Shown here piece by piece: positions 31,395 through 62,376 of a DNA stretch of 64,000 nucleotides; position 1 is the stretch's first letter; every line of letters starts with the position of its first letter. The stretch comes from Candidatus Aminicenantes bacterium (GTDB lineage Bacteria > Acidobacteriota > Aminicenantia > Aminicenantales > Aminicenantaceae), in the NCBI GenBank assembly GCA_016927475.1, contig JAFGMO010000012.1:21287-85286 (forward strand), given 5' to 3'. Under the pieces are notes generated by a model, which worked only from the letters and a program-made list of their open reading frames with translations, was not told the DNA's origin and did no database searches. Both the position numbers and the translations under genes were made by a program.

Positions 31395-31401
31395 AAATCC
31401 A

Positions 31402-35414: not shown

Positions 35415-36063
35415 CTTTCTCCTTTTTGAGACACCATCCATTATAACTTTTTGGTGAATTGAAACACCAAAAGGCTTCCACATTGGGTGAGGTTCGAGCT
35501 TCCCAGCTTGCCTGAGAAAATCCGTATATCTTGGTTATAATAGAATTCTTTCTCTTCCAAACAGGCAGAGGCAGGGACAGGGTATGATGGGCGTTTTTAT
35601 CAGCGTGGGTGTAATAGGCTCCTTGGCCATCCTCATAGGCAAAAATCCACATTTCCTTTGTTTGGATCTTTTTACTGGTCCAGAGTGCTAATAATGCTTT
35701 GCCGGTTTCTTCATGTCTCCGGTGTCGGGTGTATTCGCCCCAAGGACTGTGGGTAATTAAAAGATCAAACCTGCTTCCTTCGATTAAGTTAATGATTGTT
35801 TTGTGAATCTCGGCCTCTTCCAGTGGCTTTTGATCAGGACCGTCCTCCAGATCCGCCATTTTTCCTTTTGCATGCAGAAATCTTAGTGCTTTGAAAAACT
35901 TGTTGGATCTGTCGCGATCGCTCTGGCGGCACAAAGTATAGATTGAACATTGCCATTCGGGATGCATAATTATTGTTCCTCCTGCCCAAAGTGTCTCATC
36001 ATCAGGGTGGGCAACAATGATCCCGACATTTCGGCATTTGTTATGTGTTTTTTCTTGCCCCAT
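35389..36063 (-). CDS. PIG-L/LmbE-family N-acetylglucosaminyl deacetylase
   Basis: AHPDDE zinc-binding motif (IIVAHPDDETLWAGG) and conserved His/Asp downstream. The 3' end overlaps the GT4 start by about 26 nt. Confidence 0.8.
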   Translation of the reverse strand: MGQEKTHNKCRNVGIIVAHPDDETLWAGGTIIMHPEWQCSIYTLCRQSDRDRSNKFFKALRFLHAKGKMADLEDGPDQKPLEEAEIHKTIINLIEGSRFDLLITHSPWGEYTRHRRHEETGKALLALWTSKKIQTKEMWIFAYEDGQGAYYTHADKNAHHTLSLPLPVWKRKNSIITKIYGFSQASWEARTSPNVEAFWCFNSPKSYNGWCLKKEKDDENIGPL

Positions 36064-36212
36064 GGTTCCTAGGAATAAAAAATTTTTTTTTATTTTTATA
36101 ATTATAATGTAAAGCTCGATGTAATAATACTGGAAAGCGGCCTTAGTCAGCGGATGAATTTTTTTTTAGATGCAAAGTATTCATATTTGAAATCGGTTTA
36201 TAAATATATAAA

Positions 36213-38633: not shown

Positions 38634-38905
38634 TATAAAAACAATGAAGATGAGAAATATTTATCAAGCTAAAATAAAACAGCCTCTTTCCCTTTTCACC
38701 GATCAGTTCTTGCAGAGAAAGGATAGGAACTTCTTTTTTGTCGATGATGATTCATTTTTCCTAAATCCCCACCCAATAAAATCCTGAACTGAGACTAGCA
38801 CACCCAAACAGACAAAGTCAATGTCATTCGGAATGTCATTCGGAATGTTTCAGTAGTCGACAATGACAAATAGTTATTTTTATGTATTATGAATGGTGAG
38901 GTTTT

Positions 38906-40273
38906 ATGGAAAATCAAATTTCTATAAAAAGAGAAGGTTTTGGTACAAAATTCGGAGCTATCGCTGCGGCTGCAGGAGCAGCTGTCGGAATCGGCAACAT
39001 CTGGAATTTCCCTTATCTTACAGGTAAAAATGGTGGTGGAGCTTTCATTGTCATCTACATTTTTTGTGTTCTTTTAATCGGTATTCCGATTATGATTTCC
39101 GAATTTATTTTAGGAAAAAGAGGACAAAAGAACATGGTAGGCTCTTTTAAGACTCTTGCTCCAAACTCAAAATGGCACTGGGTAGGATGGTTCTGTGTTG
39201 TTGCGTGTTTCCTCATACTCGGATTCTACGGTGTTGTTGCAGGATGGAGTTTTGCTCATGTTGCAGAGGCTATTGGCGGCATTTTTAACGGCCTTAATGC
39301 TGAACAGATAGGGGATAAATTTACTAGACACATAACACATCCTATATGGCCTATCTTCTGGCATTTTATTTTTATGGGTGCAACTGCAGGTATCGTTATA
39401 TGCGGCATCAGAAAAGGGATCGAAAAATTCTCAAAGATTTTTATGCCGGTTCTGTTTGTTCTTCTTATGATTCTTGCTATAAGATCGATCACTCTTCAAG
39501 GGGCTTCCGATGGTCTTAAATTTATTTTTAAACCCGATTTTTCTCAGGTTAGTGCTAAAACCATACTTATTGCCTTAGGAGCTGCATTCTTCTCAATTGG
39601 TGTGGGTAACGGTGTTATGGTGACCTTCGGTTCATACCTGAGAAGAGATACAGAACTTGGAAACACAGCGTTTCAGGTTTCCATGACTGATACTATCATT
39701 GCAATTATTGCAGGTGTCGCAATTTTCCCCGCAGTTTTCGCTCTTGGATTTGAACCAACTCAGAGCTCTGGTCTTGCTTTTATTACTGTTCCAGCTGTAT
39801 TTCAGAGTATTCCAGGCGGAGCAGTAGCGCACTACTTTTTTACACTTGTCTTCTTTATCCTGCTTTCAATTGCGGCACTCACATCTTCCGTTGCAACCCT
39901 CGAGGTAGTGGTAGCTTATTTTACAGAAGAGTTTAAGGTAAAGAGAATAGGTGCTGCTTTAGTGATTTCCGGAATAATGTTTCTTATTGGTATCCCCTGT
40001 GCCCTCTCAATAGGTGCTGTACAAATTAACCTTTTTGGAGTTGGATTCTTCGATTTTATCATTTTCCTTGTTGAAGCTATCTTCCTGCCGGTTGGCGGAC
40101 TTATGATAGTTATCTTTGTAGGCTGGCGTCTCAAAAAGAAAGATATTGAAGAAACATTAAGTGCCAATGGAGTAAAAGCTTGGTATCAGGATAGTTGCCT
40201 TTTATTAATAAGATTTATTGTCCCAGTAGTTATTGTTGCAGTTCTTGTTAAAACTTTTATTGATGCTTTCTAA
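38906..40273 (+). CDS. neurotransmitter:sodium symporter (NSS/SNF, SLC6-like) family transporter
   Basis: N-terminal NSS signature (GFGTKFGAIAAAAGAAVGIGNIWNFPYLTGKNGGGAF) and 11-12 TM segments. Confidence 0.85.
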   Translation: MENQISIKREGFGTKFGAIAAAAGAAVGIGNIWNFPYLTGKNGGGAFIVIYIFCVLLIGIPIMISEFILGKRGQKNMVGSFKTLAPNSKWHWVGWFCVVACFLILGFYGVVAGWSFAHVAEAIGGIFNGLNAEQIGDKFTRHITHPIWPIFWHFIFMGATAGIVICGIRKGIEKFSKIFMPVLFVLLMILAIRSITLQGASDGLKFIFKPDFSQVSAKTILIALGAAFFSIGVGNGVMVTFGSYLRRDTELGNTAFQVSMTDTIIAIIAGVAIFPAVFALGFEPTQSSGLAFITVPAVFQSIPGGAVAHYFFTLVFFILLSIAALTSSVATLEVVVAYFTEEFKVKRIGAALVISGIMFLIGIPCALSIGAVQINLFGVGFFDFIIFLVEAIFLPVGGLMIVIFVGWRLKKKDIEETLSANGVKAWYQDSCLLLIRFIVPVVIVAVLVKTFIDAF

Positions 40274-44106: not shown

Positions 44107-44184
44107 CACACATAACGTCAAAGCTCACCGGCGGCAATGGAGCGCAGCGGAATTGCCTGTCCGAGTTGATGCGTTTGTTATGTG
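44107..44184 (-). other. attC-like recombination site (attC-L2), minus-strand polarity
   Basis: Minus strand reads ACATAAC-AAACGCATCAACTC...GGCAAT/ATTGCC centre...GAGCTTTGACGTTATGT. R'' ACATAAC pairs with R' GTTATGT, with imperfect L''/L' bulges. It begins 2 nt after the TPR gene stop. Confidence 0.55.
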
Positions 44185-44185
44185 T

Positions 44186-44881
44186 TCACTTCTTTTCCAT
44201 TATTTTCTTTTTCAATTCTAATAAGTTGGCGTTATTTGGCTCCACTTCTAATCCTTCATTGATGAATTCCAAAGCCAAATCATAATTACCCTGCTCAAAA
44301 AATATTTGAGATAATCGCAAAGATTTGGCTATAGAATGCTTCTTAACATCTTCTGGGGAAACGCCACGTAAAGTTGGTTCATAAGTATCTATACTTTCCT
44401 GTGCCAATGATAGATATTTTTCAAATTTCGTCGGAGATGCAGAATACATGAGGTTATGTGTAGTGTTACCTATCATAAAATCAATAAATAATATTTTTGT
44501 GCCTTTGAAAGTAAATGTTCTCTTCACGGCTGGTTTGCCAGCAAACGCGATCTTTTCTATATTAGTATTGGTCCCGATCTTTTTTTCTATTCCTTTAATT
44601 TCTTCTAACATTTCTTCAAAGCTGTTGTAATCAAGTCCTTTTGCTAGGACTCTTAGTTCAACACCATCAGGGGCAATAAAGGCGACCTTTCCACGAGGGT
44701 CTTGCGGATATTGCTGTATCCGCCACCCATCTGGAGGAACAATTTTGAAATAACCATTAGGATCGGAATATCGACTTTTTGCGAGTGTAGCTGTTTTGCT
44801 CTGCGCATTAGCGCTTCCGATTAGCTGAAAAACAAAAAACAATGAAATAATTGTAACACTTGCGAACTTGAATTTTTTCAT
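44186..44881 (-). CDS. TPR-repeat lipoprotein/secreted protein (integron cassette L2)
   Basis: Signal peptide MKKFKFASVTIISLFFVFQLIGSANAQ and C-terminal TPR-like helices. ATG 44881 with AAGGAG lies directly after the R' box of attC-L1. Low GC (~40%). Confidence 0.55.
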   Translation of the reverse strand: MKKFKFASVTIISLFFVFQLIGSANAQSKTATLAKSRYSDPNGYFKIVPPDGWRIQQYPQDPRGKVAFIAPDGVELRVLAKGLDYNSFEEMLEEIKGIEKKIGTNTNIEKIAFAGKPAVKRTFTFKGTKILFIDFMIGNTTHNLMYSASPTKFEKYLSLAQESIDTYEPTLRGVSPEDVKKHSIAKSLRLSQIFFEQGNYDLALEFINEGLEVEPNNANLLELKKKIMEKK

Positions 44882-44895
44882 GTTTATCTCCTTTT

Positions 44896-44981
44896 CACAT
44901 AACACGGGCGTTGAGCTGCGAGGGCCGCGCCTACTCTGAGACGGGGCGCGGACCTCGTCTGCTCCAACGCCTTGTTAGCCG
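44896..44981 (-). other. attC-like recombination site (attC-L1), minus-strand polarity
   Basis: Minus strand reads GGCTAACAAGGCGTTGGAGC...CCGCGCC/GGCGCGG centre...GCTCAACGCCCGTGTTATGT. L'' GGCGTTGGAGC pairs with L' GCTCAACGCC leaving one extrahelical G. The 5' arm resembles the aadA attC (CTAACAA..CGTT..AAGC). R' is GTTATGT. Confidence 0.6.
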
Positions 44982-44990
44982 ACAGCGCAC

Positions 44991-45848
44991 CTACTCGAAG
45001 CCCTGAGGCTCGTACTGCGGGGTCCAGGGCGCAACGCCCTCAACCGCACGTAGAGTGACTCGAAACCGCTGCGGGTAACTGGGATCCCTGCGTGACTTCG
45101 GAATCTCGACGATCGCTACTCCGCGGGACAGCATCGTCTGAAACGTGTAGGCGAGGGTGTTTTCCACGAAGGCTAGCACGTGTCGGCACATGGCAGCCAC
45201 CCACTGGGACACCGGCACGCCATCAACAGGCGGCTCGATCATCGACACTCCCCCCTCAGGCGTAGGCGGGTACTTGACGTCCGGGAGGACCCAGCCCTCA
45301 TGCTCGAGAGCATTGCGACGATCAATGAGACCTTGGGACCAGTCTTGTCGGGCAAGCCGGAAGTACTCGACCAGAGGTTCGTGGCCGGCGGAAGCCAGTA
45401 CAGTCATGCGGCGCTCGAAGTTCGCATCATTAGCGAAGAAGCCCCCTATGTCCAAGCCGAGATGCGCCGTCACCTTTTGCAGCGACTTTGCAGCCCGGAC
45501 CGCGCTATTCAGGAAGCGAGATAGGAGGTCACGGAGGTCATGGTGAATAGCTTCGTGGATCTCGATAGCGTTTCGTTGGCGGCCTACGATCTCGCCTGAT
45601 AGCAGCTTCGCGCGGTGACCCTCTACAAGGGTGTGCAGGGTTTTTGCAGCCTTTCGCATCGCGAACATCTCGTTCAACACAGCCTCGTACAACTCGTCGA
45701 ATGCCAGGCGGCGTGCCTCGCGCTCTCGGTGGGAGATATCGAGAGCGTTGAGGTAATGATCGCGGAGTTCCATCATGCCGCTCATCAAGCGTGCGATGAA
45801 GGGTTTGGCAGTGCCCTCGTCAAGCGCCTTCTGGATCGTCCACTTCAT
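44991..45848 (-). CDS. hypothetical protein (integron cassette L1), high GC
   Basis: 285-aa ORF with no family recognised; there is an Rx5H stretch (RQRNAIEIHEAIHH) reminiscent of HEPN. ATG 45848 lies 5 nt from the GTTAGCC core that terminates the left 140-bp repeat. Confidence 0.4.
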   Translation of the reverse strand: MKWTIQKALDEGTAKPFIARLMSGMMELRDHYLNALDISHREREARRLAFDELYEAVLNEMFAMRKAAKTLHTLVEGHRAKLLSGEIVGRQRNAIEIHEAIHHDLRDLLSRFLNSAVRAAKSLQKVTAHLGLDIGGFFANDANFERRMTVLASAGHEPLVEYFRLARQDWSQGLIDRRNALEHEGWVLPDVKYPPTPEGGVSMIEPPVDGVPVSQWVAAMCRHVLAFVENTLAYTFQTMLSRGVAIVEIPKSRRDPSYPQRFRVTLRAVEGVAPWTPQYEPQGFE

Positions 45849-45855
45849 GCTCGGC

Positions 45856-45996
45856 TAACTATTAATATACAGCATGCTGTATTTGACACAAATTTCCCTC
45901 AATTAACGTCGTATATTATGTGATATCATCGGATATCCCCGCAAAATTGCTGTCTTAGTTTATAATTATCCTGCTTATATTGCAAGTCGTATATTC
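45856..45996. repeat. left copy of a 140-bp inverted repeat pair (candidate attI/Pc module)
   Basis: Reverse-complement of 46643-46782 with about 8 mismatches. Its outer end is GTTA (GTTAGCC on the minus strand). It contains the 18-bp palindrome TATACAGCATGCTGTATA and an outward TATATT. Confidence 0.85.
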
Positions 45997-46028
45997 GATG
46001 GACCTGTTATCCTCTTGAGAGGAATCAA

Positions 46029-46513
46029 TTGAACAATCAACACAAAAATCTTGAGGAGTTTGAAGATTTTATCAAGCGTTTCCATCTTGTTCCCCTAGAG
46101 AAAGCCCGATTTTATGTTTATTGGGTAGAACGATTTATGAAATATTATAAATATAGAACTTCCAAAACGGTGGGAAATATCCTAATGCCAACAAGGAATG
46201 GCCCTGGCAGTGGGTATTTCCCTCGAAAAGCCTTGTGGTGCATCCTAAGAGCGGAAAGCTCTTGCGTCATCATATCCAACCAAGCTTGCTTCAGAGAAAG
46301 ATCAAAAAAGCTGTAAGAAATTCTGATATTTCCAAACCGGCAAGCTGTCATACGCTTCGGCACAGTTTCGCCACTCATCTGCTGGAGGCAGGACATAATA
46401 TCCGAACGATTCAGGAACTCATGGGACATAAAAACGTCAATACCACGATGATATACACTCATGTTGTTCGTAAGAGCTATTCGGATGTTTCCAGCCCTTT
46501 GGACAAACTATAG
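46029..46513 (+). pseudogene. intI: integron integrase (IntI-type tyrosine recombinase) pseudogene with internal deletion
   Basis: The N-terminal segment (EKARFYVYWVERFMKYY) matches the IntI SAM-like N-domain (EQAYVHWVRAFIRFH). A C-terminal segment in another frame ([17 protein letters not shown]...[72 protein letters not shown]...VSSPLDKL) aligns with IntI1 residues ~230-320, including the catalytic Tyr. About 160 central residues, including the catalytic R/K box and the IntI-specific insert, are missing. Confidence 0.7.
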
Positions 46514-46642
46514 AGAAATGATGGCGTGCAGCTAGAGAAAAAAGGCTTCTATCAATTTCTCATCCTAGGATTTTTGTGACAAATTGAAAAGAGTATTTTT
46601 TAGAAATTATTTAGAAAACCTTGAAGGATATTAAAGGAGTTG

Positions 46643-46782
46643 GATATACGACTTGCAATATAAGCAGGATAATTATAAGCTAAGACTGCAATTTTGTGGG
46701 GATATTCGATGATATCACATAATATACGACGTTAATCGAGGGAAATTTGTGTCAAATACGGCATGCTGTATATTAATAGTTA
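46643..46782. repeat. right copy of the 140-bp inverted repeat pair (candidate duplicated attI/Pc module)
   Basis: See the left copy. The outer end is GTTATGT at 46779-46785, where homology with the left copy stops. Confidence 0.85.
46746..46774 (+). promoter_or_regulatory. outward-facing promoter-like element in the right repeat (TTTGTG-N17-TATATT); the mirror copy on the minus strand at 45864-45892 faces cassette L1
   Basis: TATATT at 46769-74 is 34 nt upstream of the DUF4145 ATG, with RBS AGGAATGGAGG. The mirror TATATT at 45869-64 lies 15 nt upstream of ATG 45848. Confidence 0.35.
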
Positions 46783-46808
46783 TGTGAGAGAGGAATGGAG
46801 GCGATACT

Positions 46809-47411
46809 ATGGATATCAATGTGAAGCATTCATGGAAGGCCATCGTAGGCCTATCCTCGCGGGGGTATACGTGCGGATACTGCAATCGCCCCCTCGCGTC
46901 CGAGAAGGGATGGCATTCGAACAATTCCGGTTTCATCTATGTCTGCCATCACTGTACGCGCCCCACCTTCTTCGACTTTCACGGTGAGCAGATCCCGGGT
47001 GTTATGCACGGGAATCCGGTCGGTGACATAACCGACAAGTCAGTTTCCGCCCTTTACGATGAAGCTCGCAGCACAACTCAGGCGAACGCCTACACTGCCA
47101 CGGTTCTCTGCTGCCGGAAGCTCTTGATGCACGTTGCCGTTTCAAAGGGTGCCAAGCTTGGAGAGAGCTTCGCGTTCTACGTCACCTACCTTGCAGAGAA
47201 AAACTTCGTTCCTCCCGACGCAATGGGGTGGATCGATCATATCCGCAAGAAGGGGAACGAAGCGAATCATGAGATCACCATCATGAAAAAGGACGATGCA
47301 GAAGAACTGCTGTCCTTTACGGAGATGCTGCTGAGGATTATCTACGAGTTCCCTGCGATGGTCGCGAAGAAGTACCAGCAAGGACAACAAGGGAAGGGGA
47401 AGACCACATAA
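46809..47411 (+). CDS. zinc-ribbon + DUF4145 domain protein (integron cassette R1)
   Basis: N-terminal CxxC...CxxC (CGYCNRP...CHHCTRP). The C-terminal region matches DUF4145 features (VLCCRKLLMHVA...HIRKKGNEANHE). Confidence 0.55.
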   Translation: MDINVKHSWKAIVGLSSRGYTCGYCNRPLASEKGWHSNNSGFIYVCHHCTRPTFFDFHGEQIPGVMHGNPVGDITDKSVSALYDEARSTTQANAYTATVLCCRKLLMHVAVSKGAKLGESFAFYVTYLAEKNFVPPDAMGWIDHIRKKGNEANHEITIMKKDDAEELLSFTEMLLRIIYEFPAMVAKKYQQGQQGKGKTT

Positions 47412-47427
47412 CAATCGAATCGAACGC

Positions 47428-47496
47428 GACTTAGTGTTAACCGCGCCGCTTCGCTCTGCGGCTAACACTAAGCGGTTCATTCGAGGCGTTATGTCC
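47428..47496 (+). other. candidate short or degenerate attC-like site (attC-R1)
   Basis: Imperfect palindrome CTTAGTGTTAACC-GCGCCGCTTCGCTCTGCG-GCTAACACTAAG (11/12 stem), whose centre GCCGCTTCGC..GCGGCT(T)AAC resembles the aadA attC centre. It is followed by GTTATGT (47489-95), the same R' as attC-L1 and L2. The full fold is unclear. Confidence 0.3.
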
Positions 47497-47531
47497 ATAA
47501 TTGTCATGAATGAATCGAATTATGAGGTTTG

Positions 47532-50500
47532 ATGGAGCAAAAGCGCAAAATAGATAAAGTCAGGGCGTCACGGGACGGCCATGAGTTTCATGAGGCCTGG
47601 ACGGCACGTAAGGCGACTCAGTTGCTATGGCCCGATGCCGAGTTGACTGCTATCGCCGTTGAAGGGCTTTCACCTTCTGATCAGGCTGGGGCGCCCGCGG
47701 CTACGATCGAAGTCGCTGACTTGACGTTCTATTATAAAGGTCCCCCGAATTTCAAGGATTCCGCCCGAACAACAATTGCCCAATTCAAATACTCCATTGC
47801 TGATCATAACAAGGACTTCCGTACCTCTCACGCAAAGAAGACAGTAAAAAAGTTTGGCGTGACCTATCGCTCATATAAACGAAAGTACGGTGCCAAAGCG
47901 GTTGATAATAAACTCGAATTTCAGCTCGTCACGAACCAGCCAATCAGCGAATCATTGCTTCAGGCCATTGAGGCAACGGCAACGGGATCGAGGATTAGCG
48001 GTGATGTTAAGGCGCAGGCAGAGCAGTTAAAGACGGCTTCCGGCTTGTCGGGAAAACCACTGGCTGCATTTGCGAGAAAGATGAAAATTATTGGCCGCTC
48101 TGGGAGCTTGCCGCAAACAAAGGGTGAGCTTGCCAGCATGCTCGTCGACTGGTCTGCCACGAGTGATCCGATTGCTTCCGCCCGGCTCGGGAAGCTTAGA
48201 GAACTTGTACGTGACAAGGCTGGTTATGCCGGTACTAACCGAAATCTGATCAGACGCACTGACGTGCTGGCCGCTCTTAAGATCGGTGACCCGAAAGACT
48301 TACTTCCCTGTGAAGCGGCTCTCGTCGATGTCGGCAAGGTACTGGAGCGGGAGCAGCTCCGCGAGGTCATGAACCGTATCGGAAGTACGTCAACGCCGCT
48401 TCTTATTCATGCGACGGGTGGCGTGGGCAAGACAGTCTTTATGGATTCGCTCGCCTCGAAGATCGCCTCAGACCACGAGATTGTTTTCTTCGATTGTTTT
48501 GGAGGCGGTGCTTACCGCTCTCCAGAAGACGCGCGACACTTACCCAAGAAGGGGCTCATTCATATTGCGAATACACTGGCATTTCGCGGCCTCTGCGATC
48601 CGATGCTCCCGGACAGTCCTGATGTGCACACTTTACTCAGCACGTTCCGCCGCCGCCTTACGCAGTGCCTGAACACCATCTCACGCATGATGCCAGGACG
48701 CAAGCTGGCGATTTTTATTGATGCCATCGACAATGCAGCCTTTGCTGCTGGCCAGGCAAGCGAAGACTGTTTTCCCATTAAGCTGCTGGAGACCCTCGAT
48801 ACGGAACCGATTGATGGCGTAAACCTTATCGTGTCCTGCCGTACAGAACGCAAGCCGAAAACCTATGCCAAGCTCGATGAATTCGAACTGTACCCTTTTA
48901 CCAAGGATGAAACAGCCACGTTTTTGCACGCGCGACTGAAGAGCGTCACAACCATAGAAATAAACGTTGCGCAAGCCCGGTCAGGCGGCAATCCGCGTGT
49001 GCTGGATTACCTGGTCAAGGCAGGTCGCGGCCTTCTTGATCCATCCGAGATCAACAAAGACATCGAGCTGGATGATCTGATTCAACAAAGAATCACGGAT
49101 GCGCTCTCTTTGGCCACAAAGCAGGGTTATAAGGAGAAGGACCTCAGTGCCTTTCTTGCAGGGCTCGCGGTGCTTCCTCCGCCGGTGCCTAAAGATGAGT
49201 ATGCCGCCGCTCATGGTATAGAGCTCGCCGCCATTGAGAGCTTTGCTTCGGACCTTAGCCCTCTACTAGAGCGCACCAATCACGGGCTCATGTTCCGTGA
49301 TGAGCCAACGGAAACACTGATCCACGAGCAATACGCGACATCACGTGATGCGCTTGAGCGTGTCGCATCCAATCTCCTTGCTCGCCAGGATGCGTCGGTA
49401 TATGCAGCCCGTGCGCTTCCGCGTCTGCTACACGAACTCGATGATAATGAGCGGCTGTTCGCACTTGCTTTCGATGATCGTATTCCTGCCTCAATTACCA
49501 GCACAGTTGGCAAGCGCAATATTCAATATGCCCGGCTTAAGGCAGCCACTTTGCACGCGGCTCTCAAGGTTGACTACAACAGCCTTGTACGGCTTCTCGT
49601 CGAGCTATCAACCTTAGCTGAGGTTGATCAGCGTGGAGCCAATTATCTACTGAAACATCCTGATCTTGTTGTTGCTGCCGAAGATGTTGACGCCCGGCGG
49701 CGACTATTTGAAATAAGAACGGCTTGGCCAGGAACACGACATGCGCGTCTTGCTATCGTCAATGTTTTATCGGGTGATCCGACAGAGGCGACCCGTCATG
49801 CACATGCAAATGAAGAGTGGATAAAGCATTACCGGCGCACAGAGCGAAACGATTTTGAGCGTGAACCAATTCCTGATCAGGCCGACATCGCTGCCACAAG
49901 TTTCTTTCTGATCTCGGAAGATCGCACAGAAAATGCGGCCGGCTACCTCACAGGTTGGCGGGACTGGTATGCCTTTGAAGTTTCTCAGCTCGTCCTCGGA
50001 TATGCGCATCTTGCGAGCTTGTTAGGAACTCAGCCCGCTCAACGGACTGAACAATTCATTGATGCGCTCTCCAGTATCGGTCCGATTGCGGCTGCTTTGT
50101 CTTTTCAAGAGCTGGCGAACTCTAAATGCAAGCCGCTTTGCGTCAAACTCGCTGCTCTCTGCAAGAAGGAGACAAAGCTTTACTTGCCGCAAAAAAGTTA
50201 CTCGCGCCCAAAAAACTACGAACTCGAAGACGGTCTAAGGAAGTCGGCCGCCATCGCGCTCTCATTGGGCCTCATCACTGAGGCACAATCTATTTCACTA
50301 AGAGCACGGCATGATCGGCCCGGTATCTGGGCATACCGTGACGCGTTCAACCACACAGAAGTATTCGCTAATATATTCCGAGTTGCCCTGCTTTCTGCTG
50401 CAAAGAAGCGCGCTATTCACGAGAAGGAACTGCTGCCAAAAGAGCTCGTATCGGTCTGCGCGCGCATTCCAAAGACCATTTCTGGAAAAACCTTCCGAGA

Positions 50501-53500
50501 AAAGGCCAAGGAAGAGCTCTCTAAGCTTCCGCGCAAGCCGCGTTACGAAGATGGGCAAACCAAGAACGTGGCGGCTAATGCCATTAGCTATGATGAGCAG
50601 CAGACGGCAGAGCGCTTTCTTGGCATCCGCCTGGAGCCGCTGCTTACTCTCACTGAGGCACTGTCGGCTGCACTCGCAGCATCGGCGCGGACCATTGATA
50701 AGCGCTTTGTCGAGCTTGTGGAAGCCTGGGAGCAGGCGCGAAAAAATCGCGATCACTACCGGGTTGAGGATATCGATCCCTTCTTTCAATTCTTGGGTCT
50801 CGACACTGTTCTCTTCATATTGTGGTCCCGTAGCGAGCTGAAGCCACAATCCATCGAGCGCATGCTGACAGCCGTACATGCCCACATGAGCAATGCCAGT
50901 GATTTGATTCGTATTGTCGCGATTCTATCGCAGCGAACCCCGCTGCACTCGATTGCGGGCGAGCAGGCCGTAAAGGCGCGCGAGATGATTAAGAAAGAGG
51001 ATGAAGTTACCTATCGGGCGTCTCTCTATGGTGCTCTTGGCCGGGCAATCCTTCCTGCCAGCCTTGATGAGGCTGCCTCCTATTTCCGGGATGGTCTGGA
51101 GCAGATGGATGCCATTGGTTCGGGTGATTACCAGTTCACGAATGAACTGCTCTTGTTCGCATCGGAGATGAAAGGTGACGAACTGGAAGAACGTGACTTT
51201 CACACGCTGAGCAATATCTGCGAACTCAATATGGGGGACGAGCCCGAGAAATTTTTCTGGGGTGCGTACGGTCGCGGCATGGCAAAGGCAGCCGGGATGC
51301 GTGGCCTATCCAAGCTCAGTCGCTGGGATGACCGCAACAGGATAGCTCTGGACAACACACTTCTCACCTATCTTACGGGGCTGCTCGAAGCGGGAAAGAT
51401 CGATCCAAAGGGCGCGCTTTGTCTAAACCGCCTCGCCAATCCGGTTGAATATTTCTATGCCGGGACGAAGGAGTTTGCCAAAGCGTTGCGCGCCCAGGCA
51501 GGGCCGGATGCTGAAGTGATTACAGAGCTGATAACACAGTTCGAGGATGACAATCCGACGATAGCGAGTGACGAGACTGTCGAGACACTTTATGCGCTGG
51601 CTGACGAAGCGCTGGGTGCATCGCATGATATAACGAAGCACCTCAAAGCCGCGCGGGACAGATACGAGACCGCAAGGCAAGGACGCAATACTGCGTATGG
51701 TAGTAGCAGCGACTTCGATCCGAAGATGCATAGAGAAGCTGCCAAACGTGACAATGCAAACCGGGAGGCACTCGCACGTATAGCTGAAGCGACGGACCCG
51801 ACCGACGAGGCATCGCTTGTAAAGGCCATCGACGAATTCAATGCACTTGGGAACATGTATGACCTAAAAGGTGGCTTCTTTTCCTCGCTGCGAGCCAAAG
51901 TGCCCTTTGCTGCGCGCGGCCAGTATGTGCGCAATGTTGCCAGTCTGGAGCATCTGTTCTTCTATTGGAAATTCGCAGAACTGAAAGATGCAAAGGAAGC
52001 CTGGGGCGAATCATCCGTAGCGCTTGCTGGTGTTTATAGGAGCCTGGCACAGCCGCTAATTCTTGCCCATGCCGATGATTTGGTCAATGACGGTCGGTTC
52101 TCGGGTTCGAGCATCAAGGAAATATCTGAGTTTACGGGTGTGTCTATGGCCGAACTCGTTCTTGAGGTGATAAAGGTCTTTTCACGTCCTGATAGCACGG
52201 CCGGTGGTTCGGTATGGCTTGCGCTTGCCAATTTCATATGTCCAGCAGCGGATGAAGGGCAGGGGCAACTTGCCCTGAAGCGCCTACTGTCTGGCGACTC
52301 GGCACGGATTGCCGACAACGTAACAGACGGTCCATGGAAAGCAGGCTGCTACCCCGCGGATGTCTTCGCCGAAATTGCTGCTGGGCTAATATGGCGTGTC
52401 CTCGGTTCGCCCCATGCGACTGACAGATGGCGCGCGGCTCACTGCATACGCCGATTTGCAAAGTTCGGGCGCTGGGACATTGTTGACACGGTTGTTGCCG
52501 CCTTTGATACGAAGACTGCTGAACCGTTTCAGGCACCAGAGCTTGTGTTCTATTACCTGCATGCACGGTTATGGCTCCTGATAACCCTGGCGCGGGCCGC
52601 GATCGATCATCCCGATCAGGTGGCGCGTTACAAGGATCTACTCTTGGCTGTCATCATGGAAAAAGATGAGCCGCATGTGCTTAAGCGCCACTTTGCCGCC
52701 AAAGCGCTTCTTGCCTGTATAGAACGCAGCAAACTGGTGCTTGACCCAGCCACGCTCAAGATTGTGCGTAATGCCGACAATTCCCCGAATCCGCGTTTAC
52801 GAAAGAAGATCCGCAACGGCGGCGGCTTCTATCAGGGCCGTCCGAAATCAGTATCCAAGCCTTCCTTTCGTTTTCATCTGGAGTATGACTTTAATAGGCA
52901 TGACGTTGATAACCTCGGCCGTGTCTTCGGCAAGGGCTGCTGGGAAGTTGATGACATGATGTCAAGCATCGTACAAAAGATTGATCCGTCAATGACGCAC
53001 ATGTATGAGGATGGTGACCGCGAGTACCGCGGGCAAAATTCTCATGGAATAACGACTCGCTTTCACGGCTATGGGCAACAGCTCGGCTGGCATGCACTAT
53101 TCATTGCTGCAGGCAAGCTGCTTGCCGCCAATCCTGTAACCAACGACTGGTGGTACGAGGACGACCCGTGGGGAGAGTGGCTTGGCCGCTACGTGCTTAC
53201 GCGAAAGGATGGATTGTGGCTATCCGATGGAACAGACAGGACTCCAGATGACGCATCTGTGAGGCTGCTTGAAACAAAGAAGAAGGGGCTTACGATAACC
53301 GGCGATCAGAAGAAGATTATGGGGCTTGCCGGCATAGATATTGAGAAAGGCATTGGTGAAGAACTGATTGTTCAGGGCAGATGGTATTCATCCGATGGTG
53401 TTGAAATCGGATTATCCTCTGCGCTTGTTCCACCCAAAAAGGCCGAGCAGTTTGCAAGAAAGCTCATTCGCGAAAAGCCGATACTGGCGTGGGTGCCTGC

Positions 53501-54005
53501 TTTCGAGGACGGCGAAGACGATGAAGAATATCTTCATAGTGATAAGAAGGGGTACTCACCTTGGATTGTCTGTCCATCCGGAGAAACACGTTTGGATGAA
53601 CATGATCCATATGGCGTTTCGGTTGCCAATCTTCGGCCGCGCCTTGCGCAAGATTATTCAGAGTTCTGTAAGCTGAAACAGCAAGATGAGTTCGGACGTT
53701 TCTGGAATAACAATCGTGGGACGCTTTCACTTCTAGCCCAAGCCTGGGGGCGCGATGAAACCAATCGAGAAGACGGCCCTCATCCGGGACTGCGGCTTCT
53801 CTGCAAGTCAAGTGTACTTAAGAATTTATTAATGAAGTATGACAGGGAACTGCTATTGCTCTTCAAACTTCAGCGTTATGAGAAAGAAAGTTATCGAAGC
53901 AGCGGACATTTTTTGCATTCTATCGGTGTAGTGAGGATTGATAAGTTGCTCAGTTTGGAGTACGTTAAGGGTCGCGTAAACTACTTACACAAGTCGGAGT
54001 GGTAG
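47532..54005 (+). CDS. giant STAND/NACHT-like P-loop NTPase (2157 aa): N-terminal unknown domain + NTPase + about 1500-aa helical repeat region; candidate defence protein (integron cassette R2)
   Basis: Walker A LLIHATGGVGKTVF (nt ~48409-48450), Walker B LAIFIDAIDNA (nt ~48707-48739), sensor-like LIVSCRTE and GxP-like ARSGGNPRVLDYL. The C-terminus is long and alpha-helical. GC ~57%. ATG 47532 has GAGG upstream. Confidence 0.6.
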   Translation: MEQKRKIDKVRASRDGHEFHEAWTARKATQLLWPDAELTAIAVEGLSPSDQAGAPAATIEVADLTFYYKGPPNFKDSARTTIAQFKYSIADHNKDFRTSHAKKTVKKFGVTYRSYKRKYGAKAVDNKLEFQLVTNQPISESLLQAIEATATGSRISGDVKAQAEQLKTASGLSGKPLAAFARKMKIIGRSGSLPQTKGELASMLVDWSATSDPIASARLGKLRELVRDKAGYAGTNRNLIRRTDVLAALKIGDPKDLLPCEAALVDVGKVLEREQLREVMNRIGSTSTPLLIHATGGVGKTVFMDSLASKIASDHEIVFFDCFGGGAYRSPEDARHLPKKGLIHIANTLAFRGLCDPMLPDSPDVHTLLSTFRRRLTQCLNTISRMMPGRKLAIFIDAIDNAAFAAGQASEDCFPIKLLETLDTEPIDGVNLIVSCRTERKPKTYAKLDEFELYPFTKDETATFLHARLKSVTTIEINVAQARSGGNPRVLDYLVKAGRGLLDPSEINKDIELDDLIQQRITDALSLATKQGYKEKDLSAFLAGLAVLPPPVPKDEYAAAHGIELAAIESFASDLSPLLERTNHGLMFRDEPTETLIHEQYATSRDALERVASNLLARQDASVYAARALPRLLHELDDNERLFALAFDDRIPASITSTVGKRNIQYARLKAATLHAALKVDYNSLVRLLVELSTLAEVDQRGANYLLKHPDLVVAAEDVDARRRLFEIRTAWPGTRHARLAIVNVLSGDPTEATRHAHANEEWIKHYRRTERNDFEREPIPDQADIAATSFFLISEDRTENAAGYLTGWRDWYAFEVSQLVLGYAHLASLLGTQPAQRTEQFIDALSSIGPIAAALSFQELANSKCKPLCVKLAALCKKETKLYLPQKSYSRPKNYELEDGLRKSAAIALSLGLITEAQSISLRARHDRPGIWAYRDAFNHTEVFANIFRVALLSAAKKRAIHEKELLPKELVSVCARIPKTISGKTFREKAKEELSKLPRKPRYEDGQTKNVAANAISYDEQQTAERFLGIRLEPLLTLTEALSAALAASARTIDKRFVELVEAWEQARKNRDHYRVEDIDPFFQFLGLDTVLFILWSRSELKPQSIERMLTAVHAHMSNASDLIRIVAILSQRTPLHSIAGEQAVKAREMIKKEDEVTYRASLYGALGRAILPASLDEAASYFRDGLEQMDAIGSGDYQFTNELLLFASEMKGDELEERDFHTLSNICELNMGDEPEKFFWGAYGRGMAKAAGMRGLSKLSRWDDRNRIALDNTLLTYLTGLLEAGKIDPKGALCLNRLANPVEYFYAGTKEFAKALRAQAGPDAEVITELITQFEDDNPTIASDETVETLYALADEALGASHDITKHLKAARDRYETARQGRNTAYGSSSDFDPKMHREAAKRDNANREALARIAEATDPTDEASLVKAIDEFNALGNMYDLKGGFFSSLRAKVPFAARGQYVRNVASLEHLFFYWKFAELKDAKEAWGESSVALAGVYRSLAQPLILAHADDLVNDGRFSGSSIKEISEFTGVSMAELVLEVIKVFSRPDSTAGGSVWLALANFICPAADEGQGQLALKRLLSGDSARIADNVTDGPWKAGCYPADVFAEIAAGLIWRVLGSPHATDRWRAAHCIRRFAKFGRWDIVDTVVAAFDTKTAEPFQAPELVFYYLHARLWLLITLARAAIDHPDQVARYKDLLLAVIMEKDEPHVLKRHFAAKALLACIERSKLVLDPATLKIVRNADNSPNPRLRKKIRNGGGFYQGRPKSVSKPSFRFHLEYDFNRHDVDNLGRVFGKGCWEVDDMMSSIVQKIDPSMTHMYEDGDREYRGQNSHGITTRFHGYGQQLGWHALFIAAGKLLAANPVTNDWWYEDDPWGEWLGRYVLTRKDGLWLSDGTDRTPDDASVRLLETKKKGLTITGDQKKIMGLAGIDIEKGIGEELIVQGRWYSSDGVEIGLSSALVPPKKAEQFARKLIREKPILAWVPAFEDGEDDEEYLHSDKKGYSPWIVCPSGETRLDEHDPYGVSVANLRPRLAQDYSEFCKLKQQDEFGRFWNNNRGTLSLLAQAWGRDETNREDGPHPGLRLLCKSSVLKNLLMKYDRELLLLFKLQRYEKESYRSSGHFLHSIGVVRIDKLLSLEYVKGRVNYLHKSEW

Positions 54006-54089
54006 GCATCTAAAGTCCACATCTGACCGATAAACTCGCGGAACGAAACGGGAAATTGTTGAAAATCCCAAGCACACGATGCTTGATTA

Positions 54090-54150
54090 GAACATAACCA
54101 ACATTTTGGAGCCGACCGAAAAACCTGGCGGCTCAAAATGAACGTTAGAT
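54090..54150 (+). other. attC-like recombination site (attC-R2), about 60 bp
   Basis: ACATAAC-CAACATTTTGGAGCC-GACCGAAAAACCTGGC-GGCTCAAAATGAAC-GTTAGAT. L'' has an extra G relative to L' (extrahelical), and R' GTTAGAT is identical to the aadA1 R'. It is followed by AAGGAG and ATG 54166. Confidence 0.6.
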
Positions 54151-54165
54151 GAAAGGAGATTTGTC

Positions 54166-54801
54166 ATGAAAAAGGCTTATCTATTATTGGTTCTATCCAG
54201 CAAGAAAGCTATTCTTTACTTTTTCGCTCTCTCCACTATTTCCTTAATAATCAATCCGCTCTATTCCTTGTCAGCCGAAGGTCCTATGGCAGATATTTTA
54301 GATATAGACGGTGCGTCCATATCGGCGGAATTTATCCAGGCTAATTGGGTGGCACCAGGCGACTGGAGGCGTGGTCTCATGCCAGCAGAGGCCCCTTCTA
54401 AATTAACCTCATATTTTGAGATAAAAATAACGGTCAAAGAGGGCAGAGTTATAACCTATGAAACAGTCAATATCCCTTTTAATGATATTAGATCCATTGA
54501 GGTTGATTGGTACAGAATTGACAAAAAAAGAAATACGATAACATTCAATATGCGCAATGGAAAAGCGATCATCTATGTTAAGGAATATGACAATGCAAGC
54601 CATGGAACGTACATAAAGAAAGACCCAAATGGGAATATTTTGTCCAAAGTACCTGCTCCAGATTCACGTCTTACAATCGGAGAATACCAGGGAGTTCCAT
54701 TTGAGTTTGTTGGATTTAAAGGCAGGGCAATAATGAAATCGGGAAAAATCGGTGAATTCTCTATTCCTTACCGGGACGTTAAAAAGTTAGTATTTAAATA
54801 G
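54166..54801 (+). CDS. secreted hypothetical protein (integron cassette R3), low GC
   Basis: Signal peptide; no family recognised. It lies between attC-R2 and attC-R3. Confidence 0.4.
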   Translation: MKKAYLLLVLSSKKAILYFFALSTISLIINPLYSLSAEGPMADILDIDGASISAEFIQANWVAPGDWRRGLMPAEAPSKLTSYFEIKITVKEGRVITYETVNIPFNDIRSIEVDWYRIDKKRNTITFNMRNGKAIIYVKEYDNASHGTYIKKDPNGNILSKVPAPDSRLTIGEYQGVPFEFVGFKGRAIMKSGKIGEFSIPYRDVKKLVFK

Positions 54802-54804
54802 TAT

Positions 54805-54870
54805 TCATCTAACAACGGCATTAAGGCCGACGGTAAAAAAGCCGCCGCGCCTTATGCCGCAGCGTTATGC
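54805..54870 (+). other. attC-like recombination site (attC-R3)
   Basis: ATCTAACAACGGCATTAAGGCCGAC...GCCTTATGCCGCAGCGTTATGC. R'' ATCTAAC is a perfect RYYYAAC and the 5' arm is close to the aadA attC (GTCTAACAATTCGTTCAAGCCGAC). L'' carries an extra A. R' GTTATGC overlaps the ParE stop on the opposite strand. Confidence 0.6.
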
Positions 54871-55161
54871 GGAATCAGACGGCTCAACAATCTCCTGTGC
54901 TCCGTGCCAGACAGCGACAATCCAAATCGTCTTCTTCTCAACGCGATAAAAGAAACGATATGGATTGATCATAATTTCGCGATGCGCCAATTCCGGGAAC
55001 TCAGGAATCACTCGACCAGACTCCGGAAATCTTTCTAGACGTCGGAGAACCCGTTCGGACCTCTCACGAAAACGCTGTGCTGCGGAAGGCTTATCTCTAC
55101 GGATGTATACAAGTGCCTCAAGAAATTGCAGACGAGCCGAGGGCGTGAACCGAACCCTCAC
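54865..55161 (-). CDS. parE: type II toxin, RelE/ParE family (cassette R4)
   Basis: RelE/ParE fold signature (PSARLQFLEALVYIRRD...RFFYRVEKKTIWIVAVWHGAQ). Confidence 0.85.
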   Translation of the reverse strand: MRVRFTPSARLQFLEALVYIRRDKPSAAQRFRERSERVLRRLERFPESGRVIPEFPELAHREIMINPYRFFYRVEKKTIWIVAVWHGAQEIVEPSDSA

Positions 55162-55439
55162 GCCTCACCCTCCCGAAGAAGGGCATCCGCCTCTCGAAGC
55201 ACGCTATCTAGCGAATATCCTTTGCCCTTTGCGATCTCCCTTTCCCCCAACGCGAGCAGGCGCAGTAACTCCCGCTCATGCTGTGAACGTTCGTAGGCTT
55301 CGAGGTTCAACAGAACAGCAGTCGCCCGCCCTCTCTGGGTTATAACAAGGGGTTCCTCGGATTTTTGAAGCTCTTTCAGTACAGACGCTGCGTCCTGCCG
55401 CAGGTCTGTAATAGGAATTATTTTTGGAACTTTCGCCAT
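55158..55439 (-). CDS. phd: type II antitoxin, Phd/YefM family
   Basis: Phd/YefM N-terminal motif (IPITDLRQDAASVLKELQKSEEPLVITQRGRATAVLL). 4-nt overlap with parE. Confidence 0.85.
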   Translation of the reverse strand: MAKVPKIIPITDLRQDAASVLKELQKSEEPLVITQRGRATAVLLNLEAYERSQHERELLRLLALGEREIAKGKGYSLDSVLREADALLREGEA

Positions 55440-55513
55440 ATGACACCTCCAATGGTACGCTTAATAATACCGTATGGCGTATCATAAATCAACGTATTAT
55501 CTCCGCATAACGC

Positions 55514-55590
55514 GTGCATAACCGGTAAAAACGTTTGGCGCGGCCTTTGTACCAAAGGGCGTGACGAGCGGTTTTGTCCGTGGTTATGCG
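55514..55590 (+). other. attC-like recombination site (attC-R4), probable distal end of the right cassette array
   Basis: GCATAAC-CGGTAAAAACGTTTGG-CGCGGCCTTTGTACCAAAGGGCG-...CGGTTTTGTCCGTG-GTTATGC. R''/R' pair as TAAC/GTTA, with a central CCTTTG/CAAAGG stem and bulged arms. Confidence 0.45.
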
Positions 55591-60000: not shown

Positions 60001-62376
60001 ATGCTGATTCATGATGTTCGAATGACTTTTCGTCAATTCAAGAAATATCCGGGGTATTCTTTCCTTAATATTTTCGGTTTGGCCGTCGGAATGGCCTGTT
60101 TTTTCCTCATATTCCTCTGGGTAAAGAATGAGCTCGACTATGACCGCTTTTTTGACCATGCCGAGCGGATCTACCGGGTGACCTCGGATGTCAGCCTGAG
60201 ATCGGGCCAAAAAAAATTCTACGCCTATTCCACTCCCGCTTTGGCTGAAGCGTTAAAAAAAGAATATCCTGAAGTTATGGCCGCGGCGCGCTTTCGGCCT
60301 GCCGGGAGGGTGCTTCTTCAGAAAGATGATCAGAGCTTTTTTGAATCCGGGTTTATATTCGCCGACTCCGGATTCCTGGAAGTTTTTTCCGCTCCGCTCC
60401 TTCAAGGAAACCGGGAGGAGGTATTGAAGGAACCGCATTCGCTGCTGCTTTCCCAGGAAACGGCTCAAAAATATTTTGGGGATGAAAACCCGGTGGGAAA
60501 AACTTTGCTGGTAGATCATGAACATGAATACAGGGTGACCGGAGTTTTGGGAACTCTCCCGGCCAATACTCATTTCCGGCTGGATTTTCTCGCTTATCCC
60601 GGAGAGGACGACTTGTTCCATCCACCTAACTGGATGTCGCTATCGGTGTTTGTTTATGTCCTTCTCGACCAAAATGTTCCTGTTTTGGAGTTTGAAGCTA
60701 AAATCCAGGATCTAGCGGTAAAATATATCGGTCCAAGAGGAAAAGAGATCTTTACCTACAGGCTCCAGTCCTTGACTTCCATCCATCTTCACTCCGACCT
60801 TGAGGGGGAGTTTGCCCCGGTTATGAACGTTTTGCAGGTTTATCTTTTTATGGCTGTCGCAGTTTTGATTTTATGTGTCGCCTGTATCAATTTTGTCAAT
60901 CTTTCCACGGCCAGGGCCGGAAAAAGATCCCGTGAAGTCGGAGTACGCAAAGTTTTAGGCGCGCACCGGCTCCTGTTGGGACGGCAATTTTTCAGCGAGT
61001 CGATGTTTTCCGCTTTGGCGGCCTTTATTCTAAGTCTCGGTTTGGTGCATCTTTTGCTGCCCTTGTTCAACTCGCTCAGCGAGGGGCGGCTTAAAATGGT
61101 TTATGGTGAATATTTTGTTCTATGTGCCGGCATCGTTCTTCTGGTCGGAATATTGTCCGGCAGCTACCCGGCGGTTTTGCTTTCTTCCTTTAAGCCTTCT
61201 TCCGCGCTGAGGGAAGAAGCGCATAAAGGAAAGTCCGGGCTGCTTGTCCGCAGGGCTTTGATTGTTTTTCAATTTGCGGTGACCGTGTTTCTGCTTTTTT
61301 CCACAGGAGTCGTTTATAAACAAATGAAGTTCATGCGCAGCCGGAACCTCGGCTTCGACCAGGAACACATTGTTTCCGTCCGTATGAGAGGTGAAAATGT
61401 AGTGGGGGATTATGAAACGGTTAAAAATGAACTGCTGCGCCATCCCGATATTTTAAAAGCCTCGGCAGCGTGGTCTGTTCCGGGATTTTCCATTGCCCAG
61501 AGGGCATATGTGCCTGAAGGTTTTGAGGATAGAGCCATGATGGTTTTGACCCTCTATGTCGATCATGATTTTGTTTCGACCCTGGGATTGTCTTTAAAGG
61601 AAGGGCGTGACTTTTCCCGTAATATCGCCTCCGACACCCTGACGGCTTATATCATCAATGAAGCCGCTCAGAAAAAGTTTGGCTGGCAGGAACCGATCGG
61701 TAAAAAATTAACCTGCCGTGGTCGTGATGAAGATGAAAAAACAGCCTTCGGAAAGGTTATAGGTGTGGTTAAAGATTTCCATTTTCGTTCCCTGCACCAG
61801 TCGATCGAGCCGGTATTGCTGCGGATCAGGCCTGACCGTTTTTTGCTTATGAATATGAAACTGAGAGGCGAAAATGTATCACGGACAATGCGATTTATCG
61901 AAGAGACTTTTTCCCGCCTGCAGCCGGAATATCCCTTTGAATACTGGTTTCTGGATGAGCGCCTCGATAATCTTTACCGGAATGAAGAACGGCTGGCCGG
62001 CATCTTCTCCGCTTTTTCCTTGATTGCCGTTTTTATAGCCTGTCTGGGATTATTCGGTTTGGCCGCTTATCTTGCCGAACAAAAGACCAAAGAAATAGGC
62101 ATTCGAAAAGTCTTAGGAGCGGGAACCGGCGGTCTGGTCTGGCTGATCAGCCGGGATTTTGTCAAATGGGTCGGAATTTCCAGTTTGTTCGCCTGGCCTT
62201 TCGCCTTCATGGCTATGCGAAAATGGCTCCAGCATTTTTCTTACCGAACGGAAATAGGGATTTTGGTCGCGGCCTTATCCGGATTAACGGCCGTGCTGAT
62301 CGCTTTTTTCACCGTGAGCTTTCAGGCAGTCAAAGCGGCCAGGACGAATGTGGTTAGGTCAATTCGCCGTGAATAA
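60001..62376 (+). CDS. two-domain FtsX/MacB-like ABC transporter permease (no prefix domain, no PadR partner)
   Basis: Starts directly at TM1 (YSFLNIFGLAVGMACFFLIFLWV), with duplicated FtsX domains. Confidence 0.85.
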   Translation: MLIHDVRMTFRQFKKYPGYSFLNIFGLAVGMACFFLIFLWVKNELDYDRFFDHAERIYRVTSDVSLRSGQKKFYAYSTPALAEALKKEYPEVMAAARFRPAGRVLLQKDDQSFFESGFIFADSGFLEVFSAPLLQGNREEVLKEPHSLLLSQETAQKYFGDENPVGKTLLVDHEHEYRVTGVLGTLPANTHFRLDFLAYPGEDDLFHPPNWMSLSVFVYVLLDQNVPVLEFEAKIQDLAVKYIGPRGKEIFTYRLQSLTSIHLHSDLEGEFAPVMNVLQVYLFMAVAVLILCVACINFVNLSTARAGKRSREVGVRKVLGAHRLLLGRQFFSESMFSALAAFILSLGLVHLLLPLFNSLSEGRLKMVYGEYFVLCAGIVLLVGILSGSYPAVLLSSFKPSSALREEAHKGKSGLLVRRALIVFQFAVTVFLLFSTGVVYKQMKFMRSRNLGFDQEHIVSVRMRGENVVGDYETVKNELLRHPDILKASAAWSVPGFSIAQRAYVPEGFEDRAMMVLTLYVDHDFVSTLGLSLKEGRDFSRNIASDTLTAYIINEAAQKKFGWQEPIGKKLTCRGRDEDEKTAFGKVIGVVKDFHFRSLHQSIEPVLLRIRPDRFLLMNMKLRGENVSRTMRFIEETFSRLQPEYPFEYWFLDERLDNLYRNEERLAGIFSAFSLIAVFIACLGLFGLAAYLAEQKTKEIGIRKVLGAGTGGLVWLISRDFVKWVGISSLFAWPFAFMAMRKWLQHFSYRTEIGILVAALSGLTAVLIAFFTVSFQAVKAARTNVVRSIRRE

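Follow-up and report, generated by a model that had tools for sequence, protein, structure and literature searches.

A 64-kb stretch of DNA from a metagenome-assembled genome (MAG) of an Aminicenantes bacterium, referred to here as the window, contains at positions 44110-55589 a locus that is very probably an inactive sedentary chromosomal integron of a two-armed type: a single integron integrase gene (intI) lies between an inverted pair of attI sites, and cassette arrays run outward from both. A reading of the window made from its sequence only had described a degenerate integron with a dead intI between inverted attI modules and outward arrays, and the structure of the locus, a covariance model and, above all, the comparison with relatives support this description. 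As the relatives show, two arms are the standard throughout an IntI clade of sediment bacteria, also where the integrase is intact. The architecture is apparently undescribed so far.

The integrase remnant and its inverted attI modules

The gene layout shifts inside the element: two minus-strand genes lie on the left and four cassettes on the right (three with plus-strand genes, the fourth with a reversed toxin-antitoxin pair), and a 0.9-kb AT-rich core separates the two arrays. The central features are as follows.

Upstream (U) attI module: 45853..45994, minus strand, reading outward; crossover G|TT between 45859 and 45858; junction GTTAGCC (45859-45853)
intI pseudogene: 46029..46513, plus strand; N-terminal fragment (46029-46184 aligned) fused out of frame to a C-terminal fragment (46175-46513)
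Downstream (D) attI module, an inverted copy: 46644..46785, plus strand, reading outward; crossover G|TT between 46779 and 46780; junction GTTATGT (46779-46785)

The inverted repeat around the intI remnant extends over 156 nucleotides (nt; 45839-45994 versus 46644-46799, 91% complementary). The actual module unit is ~139 nt long and 95.7% identical between the arms of the window, in agreement with the ~140 bp and about 94% given by the sequence-only reading. Only two copies of the module exist in the 64 kb, compared to 0 expected by chance. Arm homology ends exactly at ...TATTAATAG|TT on the left and on the right, and the arm comparison confirms the GTT cores at which homology had been said to stop (GTTAGCC left, GTTATGT right). 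The U module contains conserved GTCGTATATT repeats and an outward promoter-like site, which in the window reads TTGCAA, 17 nt, TAAACT (family consensus TAAGAT); a module of this type is located 5' of intI in all relatives of the clade. The inner flank of the window's D module matches the D arms of other loci. A 12-14-bp palindrome (left arm: TACAGCATGCTGTA) is found at 45872-45885 and 46753-46766, 9 nt inside the attI crossover; it is partially conserved across arms and might be a candidate regulator-binding site.

The intI remnant aligns to residues 1-52 (~1-46 conserved) and 322-433 of an intact relative of 433 amino acids (aa). Approximately 275 residues are missing, the catalytic R146 and K171 (IntI1 numbering) among them; the earlier estimate of ~160 lost residues is too low because an ordinary IntI of 320 aa had been assumed. 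The remnant matches Pfam Phage_integrase (8e-21), and its C-terminal part (about the last 113 residues) matches positions 204-315 of TIGR02249 'integron integrase' with 179 bits, which remains below the whole-protein cut-off because of the truncation. No second intI was found in the 64-kb window. The 92-aa integrase ORF of the window has no entry in the contig index that was searched.

The two-armed layout in relatives

Relatives were obtained by tracing integrase-fragment matches to their contigs, by scanning genome contigs for the module motif and by scanning metagenome contigs with the intact IntI of locus L019; a pipeline was then run over all loci, which carry the prefix L in the following. 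When the IntI is at least about 67% identical and both flanks are on the contig, an inverted module pair surrounds intI in ~25 distinct elements of public metagenomes and MAGs: one module is plus-oriented and lies 5-90 nt ahead of intI, the other is minus-oriented and lies 79-141 nt past the stop codon. The two-armed elements include L004, L005, L010, L013, L015, L018, L019, L023/24, L026, L027, L028, L030, L032, L034, L039, L044, L045, L067, L068, L085, L087, L095, L098, L100 and L101. An upstream/downstream inverted repeat is absent from all of the ~22 loci whose integron integrases are more distantly related (36-55% identity).

Intact IntI open reading frames (ORFs) are present on four two-armed platforms: L019 (433 aa), L023/L024 (430 aa), L027 (412 aa, counted from the first listed start) and L028 (431 aa). 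All four retain R146, K171, H277, R280, H303 and Y312 in the alignment, and the L019 protein, the sole one of the four that was scanned, reaches 443.6 bits with TIGR02249 (cut-off 265). The IntI of this clade (~430 aa) consists of a normal IntI core and an N-terminal extension of ~119 aa (L019 98-1399; L028 89-1384; L024 8292-9584), which includes a second, weaker SAM-like stretch. The distant IntIs of L041 and L053 (41-46% identity) also span the extension, yet they are found without inverted modules. Elsewhere in the clade, the gene has been lost in various ways: the deletions differ among the window, L002, L005 and L010, and the intI of L029/L004, 99% identical to the intact gene of L028, has one frameshift and two stop codons. 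Decay of the integrase is recurrent and independent in the clade. When L028 1-1700 is compared with L029 9900-11700 and L004 7050-8800, the flanking arrays are 100% identical, with 16-17 differences within intI; these substitutions are confined to the first ~810 bp of the 1.7-kb stretch, mostly to the 5' half of the gene, a hint of recombination between variants. Recurring proteins of 195 aa among the top 120 protein-search matches, all of them short integrase fragments, could have been taken for a mini-integrase; this reading was rejected, the ORFs having been called from a conserved internal Met instead.

Several lines of evidence indicate that both modules act as attI. In an alignment of 76 arms, similarity stops at the same GTT in every arm, and close relatives differ by whole cassettes exactly at G|TT on both arms. 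On the upstream arm, L034 has a 772-bp cassette absent from L024, which is inserted exactly between G and TT and has a canonical attC at its end (...G|TTAGCGG). The first cassettes of the downstream arms of L023 and L034 differ (768 and 1433 nt) and are followed by a common cassette starting TTATAAGCAATTC. An exact reverse-complement match between the 7-mer at the junction and the R'' box of the closest outward attC exists in 22 of 28 arms (15/17 upstream, 7/11 downstream); permutations yielded a mean of 2.0, and 0 of 2000 reached 22. The whole-cassette differences on both arms and this junction rule together identify both modules as genuine attI sites. Orientation follows the same division: in 31 loci, covariance-model attC sites left of intI are minus-oriented in 46 cases versus 4 plus-oriented ones, and those to the right are plus-oriented in 36 versus 2. 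The exceptions are located far out or in rearranged loci, and an earlier run on eight loci agrees. Both attI sites bear a record of past attI × attC insertions.

Of 66 distinct arms, 57 contain an outward TTGCAA, which in 42 of them is followed by TAAGAT at 17-nt spacing. A second element, TTTGCA-17-TATATT, adjoins the core in the upstream arm of L024, where the arm consensus is similar. A generic sigma-70 scan of the window modules returned no promoter.

Some cassettes are common to upstream and downstream arrays of different elements and keep their outward orientation. A stretch of 1.8 kb with two cassettes, which opens the upstream array of L004, recurs in unchanged order at 755-2554 of the downstream array of L036 (97.7% identity), and this shared stretch could stem from a flip of the central segment or from re-insertion of a two-cassette circle. 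Inverted sites around their own tyrosine recombinase gene are also the layout of a DNA invertase. The attI pair may be mainly an inversion switch, in which IntI flips the intI segment by attI × attI recombination and capture at the second arm is secondary. This is unlikely, though worth keeping in mind: the L004/L036 pattern is what a central flip would yield, but excision and re-insertion of a two-cassette circle gives the same pattern, no isomer pair of one element was seen among the assembled contigs, and the insertion polymorphism at both arms speaks for real capture at both.

Inverted repeats around a recombinase gene resemble a mobile element, too, so that the 140-bp repeats may be considered terminal inverted repeats of a transposon, an insertion sequence or a miniature inverted-repeat transposable element, and the genes outside ordinary neighbours. 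The distribution of the module makes this highly improbable: in ~60 public loci it always adjoins the intI of one clade and does not behave as a dispersed repeat, and both of the only two copies in the 64 kb are at intI. The outside sequence always begins at GTT and leads into attC-bounded cassettes, no target-site duplication was seen, viral contigs were without match, and plasmid matches are limited to the integrase-catalytic stretch (query 476-612, within the intI remnant). An assembly artefact, such as a chimeric join of the arrays of two strains via the attI repeat, has just as little to recommend it. Short-read contigs often end inside the module (L001, L012, L019, L020), but over 25 contigs of JGI, ENA and NCBI assemblies, which were generated by different pipelines, show the layout, and the D arms have their own sequence type, their own inner flank and a set distance of 79-141 nt from the intI stop, which a chimera through one attI cannot explain.

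The two-armed integron also appears to be old. The sequence-only reading had proposed that an inversion-duplication built the platform, which was later fossilised by the intI deletion. The gene is indeed dead, but the platform is clade-wide and was not made in the window genome, and the high identity of the window arms points to later homogenisation, not to a recent duplication. A private, recent inversion-duplication of the attI region in the window genome, shortly before the intI deletion, would agree with window arms that are closer to each other (95.7%) than those of most relatives (74-88%) and with a closest relative, L002, that has the upstream arm only; it is nevertheless very unlikely. 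The module pair is spread through the clade with 63-91% identity to the window arms. The right arm of the window has the downstream-type inner flank (..CTCCyTTAATATCC..) of L023, L024 and L037, as befits an old downstream arm with a homogenised core and not a new duplication. In the L004-like subclade, upstream arms group together and downstream arms group together, the arms within an element being ~85-88% identical, which points to an old duplication. The arms are nearly identical in L068, as in the window, and only in their outer half in L026, a pattern that indicates gene conversion between arms. Upstream and downstream arms are alike beyond the 139-nt core, in L098 over 199 nt and into the first intI codons; by its appearance, the downstream arm therefore arose long ago as a copy, in inverted orientation, of attI together with the 5' end of intI. 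One-armed L002 is best read as having lost its downstream arm.

Several loci depart from a simple platform. Extra attI modules are located a few kb off the platform in L024 (5368-5509, with no integrase match nearby), L085 (6282-6429), L099 (3998-4240, opening a second platform), L098 (4977-5105) and L083 (10292-10435), which suggests tandem multiplication of platforms or attI sites. To the right of its two-armed integron, L004 carries a second, unrelated one (13997-16391) with an intact 329-aa IntI (TIGR02249, 464 bits), the minus-oriented attC (13997-14098) and HNH cassette of which converge on the right-arm array. In L005, a full tRNA-synthetase gene (class Ic, C2 domain; 3492-5189) lies left of the integron and a 154-aa fragment with the same C2 domain (12761-13225) right of it, suggesting that this two-armed element sits in or beside a duplicated gene end. 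Beyond the minus-oriented cassettes of the left arm of L010, plus-strand genes with plus-oriented attC sites (5145-5223, 6687-6748) form a further array of opposite polarity (4442-7223).

The attC sites and cassettes of the window

The whole window was scanned for single YAAC...GTTR hairpins, relaxed so that R' may belong to the next cassette. The scan retrieved five sites, every one at a position given by the sequence-only reading, compared to 0, 0 and 1 in three shuffled windows. Six sites are assigned to the element.

attC-L2: 44110..44183, minus strand, outer end of the left array; R'' ACATAAC, R' GTTATGT; weak hairpin; from a strict R-box scan
attC-L1: 44897..44980, minus strand; R'' GGCTAAC, the reverse complement of the left junction GTTAGCC; fold -30.4 kcal/mol; from the hairpin scan
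attC-R1: 47406..47494, plus strand; R'' ACATAAC, reverse-complementary to the right junction GTTATGT; L'' with an extrahelical C; fold -27.4 kcal/mol; from both scans
attC-R2: 54092..54150, plus strand; covariance model, z -5.1
attC-R3: 54807..54870, plus strand; covariance model, z -3.2, position weight matrix (PWM)
attC-R4: 55516..55589, plus strand (orientation ambiguous by structure); terminal and atypical; R''/R' 7-mers fit the cassette rule

DNA folding of the presumed bottom strands gave z-scores of -6.8 for L1, -6.6 for R1, -5.1 for R2 and -3.2 for R3; those of R4 (-1.9) and L2 (-1.7) are weaker. A covariance model was constructed from 12 trimmed sites, all from other loci; a 53-column mini-attC alignment was used because the MAFFT alignment of full-length attC sites was not structural. 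In the window, this model recognises R2 (28.7 bits, E 2e-4, versus 9.4 bits for its opposite strand) and R3 (23.9 bits, E 0.003, matched in one orientation only); each of the two matches is plus-oriented. There are no further full-length matches of the model in the 64 kb, other entries at E up to 10 being fragments inside attC-R1. As a positive control, the model finds the aadA1 attC of plasmid R100 with 47.1 bits on the aadA1 strand. Rfam at gathering thresholds has no match in the window.

Orientation was assessed with a PWM based on the trimmed arms of 20 sites from other loci. The scores favour minus for L2 (44.1 versus 3.7 for plus) and L1 (31.3 versus 8.6), and plus for R1 (25.8 versus 9.1 for minus), R2 and R3 (27.2 versus 5.4); outward orientation holds for five of the six sites. 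R1, R3 and L1 share a canonical layout on the arm expected for outward cassettes: R'' is followed by a spacer of 5 nt, three base pairs, one bulged base and a GAC whose A is unpaired. In each of the six cassettes, a G joined to the opening six bases forms the reverse complement of the R'' 7-mer of the cassette itself, an agreement that a circular cassette inserted at G|TT must show; the rule extends to both module junctions, and the triplets vary among the cassettes (GCC, TGT, TGT, TGT, GAT, TGC). The identity of the attC sites is convincing for five of the six, and R4 is weak. The earlier claim of an attC after each cassette accordingly stands for the five good, outward sites and not for the last one, which is poor in fold and PWM. 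Two 5' arms had also been called near-identical to the aadA attC arm. This was overstated: the attC consensus is common to them, the sequence is not.

The cassettes, two leftward (minus) and four rightward (plus), are the following.

Cassette L2: 44116-44902, gene 44186..44905, minus strand; 239 aa, lipoprotein-like N-terminus (from the translation) and C-terminal TPR; GC content 37.5%
Cassette L1: 44903-45858, gene 44991..45848, minus strand; 285 aa; GC content 60.6%
Cassette R1: 46780-47488, gene 46809..47411, plus strand; 200-aa DUF4145 protein
Cassette R2: 47489-54144 (6.66 kb), gene 47529..54005, plus strand; 2158-aa Avs3-type STAND NTPase
Cassette R3: 54145-54864, gene 54166..54801, plus strand; 211 aa, without family match
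Cassette R4: 54865-55583, genes 54865..55439, minus strand, reversed within the cassette; ParE toxin (54865-55161) and Phd/YefM antitoxin (55158-55439)

Cassette GC content ranges from 37.5 to 60.6%, close to the 36-60% read earlier. The toxin-antitoxin pair and the giant NTPase seen in the cargo by the same reading are recovered by profile matches as ParE/Phd (Pfam ParE_toxin 7.8e-16, PhdYeFM_antitox 1.3e-18) and Avs3 (PADLOC Avs3a, 674 bits, 1.1e-202, covering residues 10-812; Pfam AAA_16 and NACHT weak). The R2 cassette is far above usual cassette size. The R1 protein matches Pfam DUF4145 (5.8e-10) and, weakly, resembles PD-T7-4 (PADLOC PD-T7-4, 7e-7). The TPR matches of L2 are all below the Pfam cut-offs, and the L1 protein has no Pfam or PADLOC match; in the L1 region, an identical 1.8-kb Logan contig, the only one to which the 285-aa protein led, stops inside the module. 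The cargo of the window is mostly anti-phage genes, and cassettes of relatives carry HEPN_AbiV, SLFN/AlbA_2, Mrr and HNH.

By gene content (transporters, four MacB/FtsX permease paralogues, peptidases, glycosyl transferases), the window looks chromosomal. The four paralogous MacB_PCD/FtsX permease genes (~790-885 aa each) lie at 17196-26611 and 60001-62376. Overall GC content is 46%, and two stretches are distinctly lower (33-39%): 29000-33000, which encodes glycosyl transferase and GH130 genes, and 36000-39000, an 806-aa ORF (36213-38633, minus strand) without Pfam match.

Some observations weigh against the two-armed integron as described here. The upstream arm only is present in L025, L047-50 and L002 (= L079/L080), and the downstream arm only in L083; these four one-armed lineages imply that the second arm is dispensable or easily lost. 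The mini covariance model spans loops only up to ~25 nt and found nothing for L1, L2 and R4; since attC sites with long loops are beyond its reach, R1, L1 and L2 rest on folding, the 7-mer rule and the PWM. As an attC, R4 is poor (z -1.9; PWM 6.4 versus 0.8, ambiguous and weak). Finally, all evidence stems from metagenome assemblies. With regard to structure, R4 has no canonical bulge in its L box, and folding is better for the plus than for the minus strand; the site may represent the decayed end of the array or may be inverted.

Known integrons and the meaning of a second arm

The two-armed integron very probably functions in the following manner. In the intact form, one gene for a 433-aa IntI lies between two inverted copies of its own attI, and the integrase would insert circular cassettes by attI × attC recombination at the G|TT of either attI. 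Insertion at either site would give rise to one array divergent from intI and a second one co-directional with it beyond its 3' end. The conserved outward promoter-like element in each module may render both arrays expressible, the GTCGTATATT repeats are presumably accessory binding sites of the integrase, and the 119-aa N-terminal extension possibly adds DNA contacts. In the window, a deletion of ~0.8 kb together with a frameshift destroyed intI, so that the two left and four right cassettes are frozen unless an integrase from elsewhere in the genome acts in trans; the arms were presumably homogenised later by gene conversion.

By definition, an integron has a single integrase, a single attI and a single array. 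The window element agrees with this definition with respect to integrase, attC and attI and departs from it only in the single-attI, single-array architecture. With canonical sedentary chromosomal integrons (Vibrio and Xanthomonas types) it shares an IntI with the IntI-specific insertion, an attI at the 5' end of intI with G|TT crossover, attC-bounded, mostly promoterless cassettes, a toxin-antitoxin cassette and frequent intI decay, and its defence cargo fits this group. In contrast to these, the window type has a second, inverted attI 79-141 nt past the intI stop, which feeds an array on the other strand, and the IntI of its clade has the N-terminal extension of ~119 aa. In the complex class 1 integron In104 of Salmonella genomic island 1, two attI1 sites derive from a direct-orientation partial duplication of the 5'-conserved segment, a recent event in a clinical mobile element. 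It also has more than one attI, each with its own cassette, in one element, whereas the two sites of the window type form an inverted, conserved pair that encloses one intI. As the intI of the window is dead, either arm behaves as an attC cluster without working integrase, similar to CALIN (clusters of attC sites lacking integron-integrases); unlike CALIN, the window element keeps an integrase remnant and both attI. Survey tools such as IntegronFinder cluster attC sites by strand, and a second array would therefore likely be reported as a separate integrase-less cluster.

Inverted-integrase integrons of Treponema and others have one array that is co-directional with intI (Cury et al. 2016, PMC4889954). 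The downstream arm of the window type has the same co-directional array; unlike these integrons with one array and one attI, however, the window type pairs a divergent and a co-directional array around one intI. A term search of Cury et al. 2016 (PMC4889954) and of the IntegronFinder 2.0 paper returned no mention of two-sided arrays. The sequence-only reading had already considered the architecture new, and no description of an integron with inverted attI and two arrays was found in the searchable literature, the coverage of which is incomplete, so that an earlier description is possible.

The two-attI layout may, as a tentative idea, be a functional design and more than a duplication that is tolerated: one IntI would serve two arrays on opposite replication templates, and attI × attI inversion could swap the array that is nearest to the intI promoter region. 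Excision of cassettes is controlled by how their array is oriented with respect to replication (Loot et al. 2017, PMC5371416). Since the arrays are on opposite strands and template position controls excision, the two arms should differ in stability. The plus strand of the window is G-rich (GC skew +0.04). If it is the leading strand, the four-cassette right array would be on the stable side and the short left array would be prone to excision, a lead from a single case.

A conserved clade with two working attI sites would alter the definition of the integron, and arrays in uncultured phyla may be mis-scored. The clade offers a natural experiment, in which the same integrase faces two oppositely oriented arrays in one cell. 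Large defence genes, here the 6.7-kb Avs3 cassette, join the known cargo of integrons.

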